Assembly (NCBI GenBank): GCA_965204375.1
Contig: OZ241986.1
Coordinates: forward strand, 1,536,001-1,600,000
Source: Candidatus Latescibacterota bacterium
GTDB taxonomy: Bacteria; Latescibacterota; UBA2968
DNA length: 64,000 nucleotides
Reading direction: 5' to 3'
Shown here: one piece after another, positions 4,597 through 7,563 of the stretch
Layout of the letters: the number at the start of each line of letters is the position of its first letter
Numbering within the stretch: position 1 is the first letter of the stretch
The notes under the pieces: model-generated
What the model was told of the DNA's origin: nothing
The model's database searches: none
What the model saw: the letters and a program-made list of their open reading frames with translations, nothing else
Made by a program: the position numbers and the translations under genes

Positions 4597-4657
4597 AAAA
4601 AAACAGTCAAGGGGAGACCTTGCTCCCACGGTCCAATAGGTCAGACCTCTCGACTGT
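4597..4657 (-). terminator. Stem-loop plus U-tract directly downstream of promoter P1 (possible short ncRNA)
   Basis: Minus strand ACAGTCGAGAGG...CCCCTTGACTGT stem followed by a T-run. Confidence 0.6.
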
Positions 4658-4664
4658 GCTGACA

Positions 4665-4693
4665 ATTTTACTCAAAACCTATATTCACGTCAA
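4665..4693 (-). promoter_or_regulatory. Sigma70-type promoter P1 (copy 1 of a ~54-bp direct repeat)
   Basis: TTGACG-17 bp-TAAAAT on the minus strand. Confidence 0.65.
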
Positions 4694-5022: not shown

Positions 5023-5104
5023 CGTTGTTTCTCCTTCACTTGCGCGGTCTCGTATTGGGAACCGTTGTTCTGATAACCCATTGAATAGACCTCACAAGAA
5101 TCGC

Positions 5105-5347
5105 TTACCCTTTGAAATAGGTCAGTAAACTGATAATGATAACCGCAACTGCAATGAGCAAAGACAACCATTTTATGGTTTGCCCTTCCACGCGGTTGAT
5201 ATCGCTTTTTAAGTTGGTCTCCACACGGTTGATATCGCTTTTTAAGGTGTTTTCGACGCGGTTAATATCGTTTTTTAAGGAGTTTTCCAGGCCATTGAAC
5301 CCCGCGTTCATCTGGTTGATCAGTTGCTGAAAACGGTCATCTGCCAT
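5105..5347 (-). CDS. Small coiled-coil protein with 11-aa repeats and a C-terminal TM helix (DUF1640/Bdr-like)
   Basis: LK(N/S)DINRVE repeated three times, then KWLSLLIAVAVIIISLL. Confidence 0.7.
   Translation of the reverse strand: MADDRFQQLINQMNAGFNGLENSLKNDINRVENTLKSDINRVETNLKSDINRVEGQTIKWLSLLIAVAVIIISLLTYFKG
5188..5280. repeat. About three tandem 33-bp coding repeats
   Basis: Units start at 5188, 5221 and 5254 with core CGGTT(G/A)ATATCG(C/T)TTTTTAAG. Confidence 0.9.
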
Positions 5348-5425
5348 GACAATTCGTTTTCCCTTTTTATTTTAATGCCGCTGATTTGACCACCAGTACA
5401 GATCAGACCTCTTGACTATGTAATA

Positions 5426-5454
5426 ATTTTACTCAAAATCTATGCGTAAATCAA
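5426..5454 (-). promoter_or_regulatory. Sigma70-type promoter P2 (copy 2 of the ~54-bp direct repeat)
   Basis: TTGATT-17 bp-TAAAAT; 5403-5455 aligns with 4641-4694. Confidence 0.6.
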
Positions 5455-5465
5455 GGGCGATTGCG

Positions 5466-5648
5466 GTGACGACTCCCAACCGTGAACATGTTGGGCTTCT
5501 TGGCGATTAACCCCGCCAGAGTACATCGTCCTGGACTCATGGGCAATGCTGTATTACTTGTTCACTGGTGAAAGCATCCCAAAAAGGGGATGACCCCCAG
5601 GTTTTACCTACACAGGAAGGTATGTTTTGTGTAGAACCTCATACCTGT
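5466..5648 (-). ncRNA. Candidate omega/reRNA-like structured RNA inside the element
   Basis: Lies just downstream of the internal promoter; hairpins CTACACA/TGTGTAG, CATCCC/GGGATG, TGGCG/CGCCA, CCCAAC/GTTGGG; ends at the right-end TCAC. Confidence 0.5.
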
Positions 5649-5654
5649 ATGAGC

Positions 5655-5683
5655 AGCATAGTCACACGTCAGACGTATGTCAA
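5655..5683 (-). promoter_or_regulatory. Near-consensus sigma70 promoter inside the IS200/IS605-type element
   Basis: TTGACA-17 bp-TATGCT on the minus strand. Confidence 0.7.
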
Positions 5684-5768
5684 GGTTTATATACGCTAAA
5701 GCTCAAAAAGGAAGCCCTTCGCCATGCGCCCCACGGCTAAAGCTCGTGGGTTTTACGGGCTATTAGAT

Positions 5769-5802
5769 AAAAAAAAGCACCCGAATTTCGTCCGGGTGCT
5801 TT
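5769..5802 (-). terminator. Rho-independent terminator of the exbB-PEGA operon
   Basis: AAAGCACCCG...CGGGTGCTTT hairpin with a T-run on the minus strand. Confidence 0.8.
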
Positions 5803-5824
5803 CTATTTGTTAAAAAAGGTTATT

Positions 5825-5853
5825 ATCTGCGTCTATCTGCGTTCATCTGCGGA
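5825..5853. repeat. Three 10-bp-period ATCTGCG(T/G) repeats
   Basis: ATCTGCGTCT ATCTGCGTTC ATCTGCGG. Confidence 0.75.
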
Positions 5854-5862
5854 TGCTTCTTC

Positions 5863-7563
5863 TCACAGCGCGAGGGCAACGCCTATGCCGACGATGGGAA
5901 TGAGCAGGTATTTGAGAATCCCGCTGCGTTTCCCCTGGATGTTCCCGAGGATGGATGTTTCCAATTTTTTATTTCCTGATTTGTAATACAGGCATTCTGC
6001 ACCAGGAGTCGCGGCAATGGCAGTAACGCCGGGCCAAACGGGTTTGATGCTGCCCGTGGGATAGAGAATGATATTTTCGCGATGGCGTTTGTAATCGCCC
6101 ATTTTGACCAGAAGCGCGTATTCTCGTCCAAAAGTAACTTGATCGGGCTGAACAATAGGGCCAAGTTCGTCCCCGACGACGGTTTGCAAGAGAACCGTAT
6201 CCGACCTGGTTTTAGCGGTAGGCAACCACAGGCTGACGCGCGGTGAGATGGGTAGAAAAGTGGGGGCATCGGAAACTCGGAATGAAATGGGAATGGCCAT
6301 GTTTTGCGTATCTTTGAGCATGTAATGGCCTTTGGGAAGGGTGAGAGAAAACTCTTGCTCCCGATTGGCGATATTCTCGTTCAAGATGTGTTCGGCAAGG
6401 GTAGTGAGGCTATCGTACATGGCCTGTTCGTGCGAGGAGGTGGCCGGGGGCACGGGTGCTTCTCGCGTGAAGCGCACCTGTTCAAAGCGCAGGGTTTTGG
6501 GAGGCAGGTTGCGACTGGCGAGATAGGCCGCATTTACGTTGACATCTAATCGACCGAGGCGCGTGTGCCATTGTTCGGCAAAGCGCGTGAGATCGCCCAA
6601 GCGGGACTCGTTTTCCCCTGGAAGGGGATTGGGTTCTTGTTCAATGGGAAAAGGAGAACGCTCTCGGGCTTCTCGGAAAAGCGCGTGCGCTTCTGAGAAG
6701 CGGCGGTATTTGCCGAGCACAATACCATGGTACACATCAATTTGCGCGAGGGCGCGCAGCACGCCGATATCGCTTTGTCCCAGGCGACTCAGCGTGAGTT
6801 CTAATTCGCGCGTCTGGTGGCTATAGTATTTCAGGTCTTCGATAAAAGGCGTCAGGCGCGGGTCGCTGAGGCAGATAGACGCATTGGTTTCAACCGCGGG
6901 GACTGTTTCGCCAATGGCCAGGGCAGCGGTGAGGAGTTGCGCGCTTTCGGCGAGGTATTGGTCTGCGATATCCACGAGACCGGGGATGGACAATTCCGTG
7001 AGTGGTAGCGGATTGCGGGTAAGCCTAATTTCTATGAGTTTGCCACGCGGGGGCAGAAAGAGGTCTTGTTCGATGAGGTTAAAACCGGTTTTGCTGATTT
7101 CGAGGCGGTATTTGCCCACAAAAAGGTCTGACTCATAAGCCACATTGCCGCGTCCGATATTGATAAACCCGGTGATGGTCGTGTCTTGATCTGCAAACCG
7201 AAGGTGGATTTCTGCGCCTAAGGCCGCGAGTTGATCGGATCGTATCTCCAGATGCGCTTTCTGACGTATGAGCGCGATATGCACCGTATCTGCCAAAACG
7301 GTTGTCGTAAATGTGCGCGTCCAGGGCTGGTAGCCGTGTGCATACGCCTGAATTTTATCGCCAATATCCAGTAGCTTTTCTGTGACAAATGGCGTATAAC
7401 CCGCTTCCTGCCCATTGATGAAGACCTGGGCACCTGTGGGTTCTGAGCGAATGTGGATTTTCGTCTTGAAAAGCATCCTCGGCGCAGGCTCTGTTTCTTG
7501 AGCCTGGATGTGGAGCGGTGTGGTCAGCAGGATGCAAAATAAAATGAATCTCAGGGTGTTCAT
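5863..7563 (-). CDS. Exported PEGA-domain protein with helical region and C-terminal hydrophobic anchor
   Basis: Likely start MNTLRFILF at 7563 (ATGA overlap with upstream stop); signal peptide; IRSEPTGAQVFINGQEAGYTP PEGA motif; C-terminal YLLIPIVGIGVALAL. Confidence 0.75.
   Translation of the reverse strand: MNTLRFILFCILLTTPLHIQAQETEPAPRMLFKTKIHIRSEPTGAQVFINGQEAGYTPFVTEKLLDIGDKIQAYAHGYQPWTRTFTTTVLADTVHIALIRQKAHLEIRSDQLAALGAEIHLRFADQDTTITGFINIGRGNVAYESDLFVGKYRLEISKTGFNLIEQDLFLPPRGKLIEIRLTRNPLPLTELSIPGLVDIADQYLAESAQLLTAALAIGETVPAVETNASICLSDPRLTPFIEDLKYYSHQTRELELTLSRLGQSDIGVLRALAQIDVYHGIVLGKYRRFSEAHALFREARERSPFPIEQEPNPLPGENESRLGDLTRFAEQWHTRLGRLDVNVNAAYLASRNLPPKTLRFEQVRFTREAPVPPATSSHEQAMYDSLTTLAEHILNENIANREQEFSLTLPKGHYMLKDTQNMAIPISFRVSDAPTFLPISPRVSLWLPTAKTRSDTVLLQTVVGDELGPIVQPDQVTFGREYALLVKMGDYKRHRENIILYPTGSIKPVWPGVTAIAATPGAECLYYKSGNKKLETSILGNIQGKRSGILKYLLIPIVGIGVALAL

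Follow-up and report, generated by a model that had tools for sequence, protein, structure and literature searches.

The window analysed here is a stretch of 64,000 nt from a Candidatus Latescibacterota bacterium (contig OZ241986.1, positions 1,536,001 to 1,600,000), and the genome of this host is one contig of 6.34 Mb. Along the minus strand, the window contains the 3′ end of a gene for a 680-aa protein (stop at 5863), followed by a terminator-like hairpin, the tetranucleotide TTAT, a small IS200/IS605 element lacking protein genes, the flank of this element, and a gene for an 80-aa protein. Here we describe the element, which carries a promoter and a conserved structured region resembling the scaffold of an omegaRNA (the guide RNA of TnpB). 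Coordinates without the word "genome" are positions in the window, and the element is read on the minus strand. It was compared with a genus sample of 21 genomes including the host, in which the congeners are labelled G004, G005, and so on, and single loci L036 and so on.

Anatomy and boundaries of the element

The results of blastn searches against the host genome showed that only the two ends of the 301-bp element match sequences beside resident tnpB genes. Positions 5711-5772 matched upstream of tnpB starts and positions 5464-5513 just past tnpB stops, and the left end (LE) was 83-88% identical to the LE of seven other elements in this genome. In addition, an alignment of the ends took in six resident tnpB elements of full length, a further three from a second tnpB family, and another element without open reading frames (ORFs). 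The similarity shared by the aligned elements begins precisely with TTAT or TTAC at the left and ends precisely with TCAC or TCAA at the right. Thus, the element spans 5766 to 5466. DNA folding gave a hairpin of 6-8 bp at each end, with energies modestly better than those of shuffled sequences (z = -1.3 and -1.4). The hairpin of the right end (RE) shows a compensatory change (CCCAAC/GTTGGG vs CCCACG/CGTGGG) and is helix 7 of the structure counted below. A preliminary description of this DNA, made from its letters, had placed here an ORF-less 301-bp element with both hairpins, TTAT, TCAC, AAAA, and GAAG, and we recovered all of them at the same positions on the minus strand (Table 1).

The element contains only frames of 27-43 codons, and none of them is common to the copies in other genomes except a 27-codon frame lying on the conserved RNA stems. 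These small ORFs were rejected as genes, because they are not conserved and the one shared frame coincides with RNA stems.

In IS608 of Helicobacter pylori, the left TTAC goes with the guide tetranucleotide AAAG and the right TCAA with GAAT (PMC5934647). As far as the consulted part of that account goes, the window element shares with IS608 the subterminal imperfect palindromes, the insertion 3′ of a tetranucleotide without duplication, and the position of the guides 5′ of the hairpins. However, IS608 is autonomous with tnpA and tnpB, and the window element has neither gene. We scanned the host genome and all retrieved loci for end patterns; these were loose, and the leftover instances are offsets or chance matches. 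Among 32 left-end instances, TTAT/AAAA occurred 17 times and TTAC/AAAG twice. Meanwhile, 66 right-end instances included 35 of GAAG/TCAC, five of GAAT/TCAA, and one each of AAAG/TCAC and GAAG/TCAT; GAAG/TCAA and GAAT/TCAC were not found among these 66. The IS608 combinations TTAC/AAAG and GAAT/TCAA thus occur in sister elements of the window element. Judged by these patterns, the ends obey the guide/cleavage rule of IS608, with covariation, as had been proposed for AAAA/TTAT and GAAG/TCAC.

Table 1. Positions of the features in the window (A1 and R1, alignment and covariance model described in the text)
Feature	Position	Strand	Basis or remark
Element	5766..5466, 301 bp	-	ORF-less IS200/IS605 element
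Intrinsic-terminator-like hairpin of the upstream 680-aa gene	5772..5804	-	14 pairs and a T-run; the T-run supplies TTAT
TTAT target / transposon-adjacent motif (TAM), directly 5′ of the left end	5767..5770	-	reverse complement; alignments, empty alleles
Left end, CTAATAGCCCGT	5690..5766	-	rear part common to LE of resident tnpB elements
LE guide tetranucleotide AAAA	5754-5751	-	foot of LE hairpin
LE hairpin CCCAC/GTGGG	5750-5730	-	DNA fold
Sigma-70-type promoter TTGACA-17-TATGCT	5655..5683 (-35, 5683-5678; -10, 5660-5655)	-	10/12; predicted start ~5650-5647
Conserved structured RNA region (omegaRNA-like scaffold), 180 nt	5466..5645	-	A1, pair counts, R1
Stem A	5635-5629/5613-5607	-	pair counts in A1
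Stem B	5592-5587/5580-5575	-	pair counts in A1
Long-range pairing GTGAAC/GTTCAC	5565-5560/5487-5482	-	pair counts in A1
Hairpin D	5539-5532/5525-5518	-	pair counts in A1
Hairpin E	5517-5514/5505-5502	-	pair counts in A1
Right end	5466..5513	-	blastn, end alignment, DNA fold
RE guide tetranucleotide GAAG	5499-5496	-	foot of RE hairpin
RE hairpin CCCAAC/GTTGGG	5495-5475 (arms 5495-5490/5480-5475)	-	DNA fold
Terminal TCAC	5469-5466	-	end alignment
Proposed guide flank CGCAATCGCCCTTGATTTAC	5446..5465	-	position beside RE; putative guide
Promoter-like site TTGATT-17-TAAAAT, upstream of the 80-aa gene	5426..5454	-	9/12, consensus match
80-aa gene	5347-5105	-	ORF list

Promoter and structured RNA

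Promoter-like sites were called as consensus matches and scored out of 12. Five of them were found in 5050-5900, compared with 1.3 expected from shuffles, and the one within the element precedes the 180-nt structured stretch. In 9 of the 11 copies, the pattern TTGNCN-16/17-TANNNT is followed after 6-14 nt by the first conserved RNA nucleotide; the hexamers and the spacing stay while the spacer and the next few bases vary among the copies. The two copies without this promoter are the truncated one of G004 and the one of G020 with a long left end. Furthermore, a TTGACA promoter at the equivalent place of the LE precedes tnpB in the full elements.

Ten copies of the 180-nt stretch, from promoter to right end, were aligned (alignment A1). 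The RNAalifold consensus of A1 was curated into a structure of seven helices, one of them a pseudoknot, and the pairs were then counted. The 36 pairs have 352 cells in A1, of which 96.3% are paired, and 16 of the 36 pairs changed on both sides; these figures are inflated, because the curated structure was partly derived from the A1 sequences themselves and the copies are related. None of 500 shuffles reached the observed value on four of the five measures, and 36 of 500 did so for the count of further pair types. Sliding the partners by 1-3 columns gave 27-42% pairing, with 1-3 pairs changed on both sides.

For instance, stem B occurs as CATCCC/GGGATG, CAGACC/GGTCTG, and CAGAGC/GCTCTG, and stem A as CTACACA/TGTGTAG and CCGTGC/GCACGG. 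The loop of the RE hairpin takes part in the long-range pairing GTGAAC/GTTCAC, in which two pairs covary, each of them owing to the G020/G004 lineage. G-U pairs were counted frequently, and pair 12-41 of stem A is U-G in 8 of 9 sequences. Despite the inflated figures, the compensatory changes in the predicted RNA stems are plain. The single-sequence fold of the window RNA was unremarkable (z = -1.8). The preliminary description had noted a promoter ahead of ~180 nt of multi-hairpin sequence, and this was borne out by an RNA region that shows covariation and abuts the RE. It had also recommended covariance models of TnpB omegaRNAs; in Rfam, we obtained only weak sub-threshold matches to the neighbouring terminator hairpin and none to the element. 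This negative result is uninformative, because full tnpB elements of the host and of a congener, searched as a control, matched nothing either (there is no model for this lineage).

A covariance model built from A1 (R1) scored 203.7 bits on the window copy. Across the genus, the R1 scores formed two classes: 10 genomes had 11 places at 136-220 bits, with one further place at 66 bits, and many tnpB ends reached at most 45 bits. In the host, eight right ends of the 377-aa type, namely those of six tnpB genes, a 399-bp derivative, and one remnant, scored 31-41 bits, and hairpin D, hairpin E, GAAG, the RE hairpin, and the tail aligned at high posterior probability. Because R1 aligns these parts so well, the last ~75 nt of the RNA appear to be homologous to the tnpB 3′ end plus RE, where omegaRNAs are encoded. 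R1 also aligns CCAGTGAACAAG...TTGCC with codons for TTDRDHNAA; this likeness was judged by eye and is a suggestion only.

The conserved RNA ends at the RE, the position expected of an omegaRNA running into the flank. The proposed guide flank is unique in the host genome at ≤2 mismatches over 20 nt, and no further TTAT-adjacent target of the guide was found in the host genome. Relatives with an empty allele have this flank sequence directly after TTAT. In addition, no tnpB was found within ~1.5 kb of any RNA copy in the 12 loci of the genus, nor was a parent element with this scaffold found there.

Distribution, empty sites, and candidate partners

The unique middle of the element (5500-5700) was found at 11 places in 10 of the 21 genus genomes, including the host. 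It had no match in the 20 genomes outside the genus that belonged to the wider blastn sample, and R1 had no match at E ≤ 1e-5 in a sample of 32 genomes of the same order. No further copy with this middle was found in the host genome, where only the ends of other elements matched. Comparison of the copies with their 40-nt flanks gave eight distinct sites: that of the window, one common to G018, G005, G012, and G006, two in G016 (G016a and G016b), and one each in G010, G015, G020, and G004. Thus, the copies with other flanks for which the preliminary description had recommended a search were not found in the host but in other genomes of the genus. The G020 copy is a 467-bp form with a longer left end, the G004 copy is truncated at its 5′ end, and all copies retaining a left end (9/9) are preceded by TTAT.

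The window site is empty in G005, G012, and G015. Their alleles hold TTAT|CGCAATCG, the empty allele that had been predicted, and read ...ATATTTAT|CGCAATCGCCCTTGATTTGC... without duplication, again as foreseen. An RNA-library contig of X5 has the identical empty junction (the libraries X1, X2, X4, and X5 consist of contigs only, which may stem from DNA and show neither strand nor ends). Reciprocally, the host genome is exactly empty at the site of the G018 group, ...CCATTTTAT|CGCCTGAACTCC... (TTTTAT|CGCC), and at the G010 site, ...CCCCTTAT|GACTTGACAGAC... (CCTTAT|GACT). Insertion is therefore site-specific 3′ of TTAT, with no target duplication and with precise empty sites, and the element has evidently been mobile within the genus in the past. 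The relatives' empty alleles hold 13 nt (TTCAAATATTTAT) between the terminator T-run and TTAT that the window lacks; this would be accounted for by a small deletion between two TTTAT repeats, which leaves the proposed target untouched.

Eight full-length copies with a short LE diverge by 13-29% in sequence, and the copies of G020 and G004 diverge more. Across different sites and species, the identity of the RNA part reached 97% for G018/G016b and 93% for G010/G016a. The G018 copy (L036) is 97% identical over the RNA part to L039 of G016b at another site, whereas the copies orthologous to it by position, in G005 (L040) and G006 (L038), reach only 82-86%. Whole elements at this orthologous site are 78-84% identical and their flanks 86-93%. 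This identity pattern of L036 and L039 suggests a recent transfer or replacement of the element.

Some further observations concern sites and ends. The host allele of the G016b site (genome 5417770-5417805) reads CTCC-TCAC-GCTTC, compared with CTCC-TTAT-[element]-GCTTC in G016. This TCAC equals the terminal TCAC of the element and could be chance or a footprint. In addition, a 7-nt insert, (C/T)TCGCAG, lies within hairpin loops of otherwise differing transposon ends. Two ORF-less copies (L038 of G006 and L042 of G015) have it in the RE, and so do two tnpB elements, one in the RE and the other in the LE (genome 2012063 and 1400837 regions). The G006 copy has this insert and its positional orthologues in G005 and G012 do not.

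The host genome contains 12 matches to the TnpB zinc-ribbon domain, 11 in open frames of 375-414 aa and one a remnant. The 377-aa protein has the Pfam domains HTH_OrfB_IS605, OrfB_IS605, and Cas12f1-like TNB, and it matches ISDra2 TnpB (8h1j_A) over residues 5-368 with an E value of 2.5e-54. In the alignment with ISDra2 TnpB, its segments GIDVGL, ATEKLD, and TDRDHNAA resemble RuvC motifs, to which we presume the catalytic residues belong. TTAT and TCAC are used both by the window element and by three nearly identical resident copies of the 377-aa type. Meanwhile, a TnpA match was found in 13 of the 21 genus genomes, and the full-length TnpAs of congeners are encoded in tnpA-tnpB elements whose tnpB is of the other family and whose hairpin is related. 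The search for a tnpA/tnpB element with the same ends, which had been recommended, thus succeeded for tnpB; tnpA was missing from the host.

A second ORF-less IS605-type element of 399 bp lies at genome 1010372-1010771. Its long LE with the tnpB promoter and the first tnpB codons is fused to the last ~70 nt of tnpB and the RE; it is simply a 377-aa-type tnpB element with its interior deleted. In the tnpB element at genome 5019310 (minus strand) and in L039 (G016b), the LE hairpin was lost by internal deletion and the promoter was kept. With the LE hairpin lost, both should no longer be mobilisable.

Interpretation, alternatives, and meaning

Most likely, the element is an omegaRNA-only, nonautonomous member of the IS605 family. 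More precisely, we think it probable that it is one of the palindrome-associated transposable elements (PATEs), an ORF-less derivative of the resident IS200/IS605 tnpB elements whose omegaRNA would be used in trans by TnpB. Four parts would then have been kept, namely the TnpA recognition ends with their guide tetranucleotides, the tnpB promoter of the LE, the 180-nt RNA, and the junction to the flank. The promoter at 5683-5655 would give an RNA of ~185 nt that crosses the RE into the flank, and the resulting omegaRNA would carry the guide CGCAATCGCCCTTGAT... A TnpB from a resident 377-aa ISDra2-like element with the same TTAT and TCAC ends could bind this RNA in trans. After excision, TnpB would cut the vacated site TTAT|CGCAATCG..., and recombination would restore the element. 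Movement would require a Y1 TnpA in trans, which congeners have and the host does not, so that the window copy would currently be stranded.

Several results weigh against this reading. True tnpB ends score 28-45 bits with R1 compared with 136-220 bits for the copies, so the scaffold differs strongly from the omegaRNA regions of the resident elements, and its fit with a resident TnpB is a putative one. The 5′ 105 nt of the RNA are not similar to the tnpB coding sequence above the level of shuffles (137 and 296 of 500 scored as high). For this reason, we no longer regard the entire RNA as the decayed 3′ end of a tnpB gene. The earlier proposal that the RNA derives from the RE like an omegaRNA holds for the ~75 nt that align to tnpB 3′ ends and was not borne out for these 105 nt. 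An ISDra2-like pseudoknot can be drawn in which GUGA at -100 to -97 (RNA 81-84) could pair with the terminal UCAC; it is 95% compatible but has no covariation, and a slide of -3 gives 90%. Another pairing, from loop to upstream sequence in tnpB-type ends (GCGMTAAA with TTTAKCG), was rejected, being kept in some and broken in others of 22 distinct ends. Within its RNA, the window copy also carries a weak hairpin (5598-5586) that, with its T-run, resembles a terminator. The preliminary description had seen no obvious terminator, which holds for most copies, where this hairpin is not conserved, but not strictly for the window.

The RNA-library contigs give a weak hint only, and transcription, strand, and ends are not provable from them. 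A 347-nt contig of X1 covers 5526-5852, with no X1 cover at 5441-5502; a 200-nt contig of X2 covers 5466-5622 at ~95% identity and runs 27 nt past the RE into a different flank; and X4 covers only 5712-5761 within the element, in a contig that runs into the LE of another element, with no cover at 5472-5688. In addition, no Y1 TnpA was detected in the host, which had no PF01797 match (in the control, 6 of 14 genomes had matches) and gave a best E value of 0.18 in tblastn with three congener TnpAs. The host genome thus appears to have lost this transposase. The TnpA elements of congeners use a TTGAC target and a TCAA end, so their ends are partly different, and most species have one copy per genome with no burst of activity seen. 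Mobilisation by TnpA in trans, as proposed earlier, agrees with past mobility in the genus and with ends shared with tnpB elements; a supply of TnpA in trans is plausible in the congeners and absent in the host.

Some of these results may also be read as signs of a stranded relic, that is, a decaying deletion derivative inactive in the host, with structure and promoter left from selection in ancestors or in other species having TnpA and a matching TnpB. The lack of TnpA, the single copy in the host, a guide without a TTAT-adjacent target elsewhere in the genome, and the internal terminator-like hairpin, which is specific to the window copy and G016b, all fit it, as do other clearly decaying derivatives (G016b, the tnpB element at genome 5019310, G004, and the 399-bp element). 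However, the LE hairpin, AAAA, promoter, all stems, GAAG, RE hairpin, and TCAC are intact in the window copy, and the family has kept its structure through 13-29% divergence with compensatory changes. We consider a relic rather unlikely, and it differs from the omegaRNA-only reading only on present activity in the host genome. Less probable still is a domesticated or incidental regulator, in which the element serves as a mobile promoter or small RNA, either by read-through into the 80-aa gene or by an RNA role without TnpB. The promoter does face the downstream gene, with no strong terminator in 5466-5347 on the minus strand; the insertion lies directly on that gene's own promoter-like site, and the element is kept at one orthologous site in four species. 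Nevertheless, the flanks at the eight sites are unrelated, so no common neighbour gene is served, the conserved part stops exactly at the transposon end, and the features read by TnpA, needless for a host regulator, are conserved too.

It might also be argued that the conserved pairings are single-stranded DNA structures of transposition and not RNA, which we regard as very improbable. The TnpA of IS608 needs only the subterminal hairpins and guide tetranucleotides, whereas five further helices lie between the conserved promoter and the RE, and the common G-U pairs are stable in RNA but weak in DNA. On the other side, IS200/IS605 elements move as single-stranded DNA and their TnpA reads DNA hairpins, according to the consulted parts of two accounts (PMC5934647, PMC10055086), and covariation by itself cannot separate DNA from RNA.

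The surroundings of the element also deserve some remarks. The TTGATT-17-TAAAAT site is conserved in the relatives' empty alleles, and its -35 box is overlapped by the proposed guide flank, as the preliminary description had stated. The 80-aa product of the gene that follows (5105-5347, minus strand) has DINRVE-type repeats and a C-terminal hydrophobic segment, and Pfam gave only a sub-threshold match for it. Relatives of this gene are multi-copy in congeners, with several matches, for example, in G017:C1:5484472-5489737. Two 45-nt stretches (5400-5443 and 4638-4682), 84% alike, each lie upstream of a small minus-strand gene and may be a shared promoter or operator. Furthermore, an interspersed repeat of ~30 nt lies at 5825-5854, between the stop of the 680-aa gene, which encodes a PEGA-domain protein, and its terminator. 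It has 82 blastn-short matches in the host genome and occurs at many congener loci at 93-100% identity, and its summed depth is very high in the X1 and X4 RNA-library contigs.

ORF-less palindrome-associated elements related to IS200/IS605 ends were reportedly described in a paper on Haloquadratum walsbyi, from which the name PATE is said to come, and these haloarchaeal PATEs reportedly preceded the discovery of omegaRNAs. Meers et al. (2023; PMC10055086) state that PATEs often encode omegaRNAs used in trans by the TnpB of other IS copies and are mobilised by TnpA in trans; in the part of that account considered here, omegaRNA-carrying PATEs are merely mentioned. A preprint that followed depicts a PATE with IStron ends. 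ORF-less guide-RNA elements for use in trans are therefore already in print, and the idea of the preliminary description was right in kind but not new. The Geobacillus stearothermophilus PATEs of Meers et al. likewise consist of a minimal LE and RE and no protein gene. Compared with the part of that account considered here, the present case differs in its genus-wide family, precise empty sites, dedicated conserved promoter, and covariation over the whole RNA, and in a scaffold strongly diverged from resident tnpB 3′ ends and a host without TnpA. In our search of the literature, which did not extend to subscription journals and supplements, no experimental test of a PATE omegaRNA was found.

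In the omegaRNA of ISDra2, a scaffold of 116 nt contains four stems and a pseudoknot of -5 to -3 with -103 to -105 (Nakagawa et al. 2023, PMC10097598). The resident 377-aa TnpB is of the ISDra2 type, the RNA described here is of a similar size class with several stems, and GUGA ~100 nt upstream could likewise pair with the four nucleotides that precede the guide. However, the ISDra2 omegaRNA overlaps tnpB and comes from the transcript of the element itself, and here there is no tnpB; the covarying long-range pairing here uses the loop of the RE hairpin; and the TAM is TTAT here and TTGAT in ISDra2.

What is added here is a discrete genus-wide lineage with reciprocal empty sites, a conserved dedicated promoter, covariation over the whole RNA, and a transposase-less host. 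For the host genome alone, the element is an ordinary mobile-element remnant. The family offers a clean natural case: the element is small and has a dedicated promoter, covariation backs its structure, the empty sites are defined, and the genome itself contains candidate TnpB partners. In this case, a tnpB promoter would be re-used to make a guide RNA directly. The family could be used to ask whether TnpB accepts a diverged guide RNA in trans, how much omegaRNA scaffold is needed, and whether homing can maintain guide-RNA-only elements. Because copies at other sites are 93-97% identical over the RNA part, compared with 82-86% for positional orthologues, one may further imagine that mobile guide-RNA genes form a lineage evolving on its own, a hyperparasite using borrowed TnpA and TnpB that has persisted by TnpB-driven homing while a whole genus speciated and has still moved between species. 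We hold this extension to be doubtful. If it were true, the unit of selection would be a protein-free, RNA-guided selfish element.

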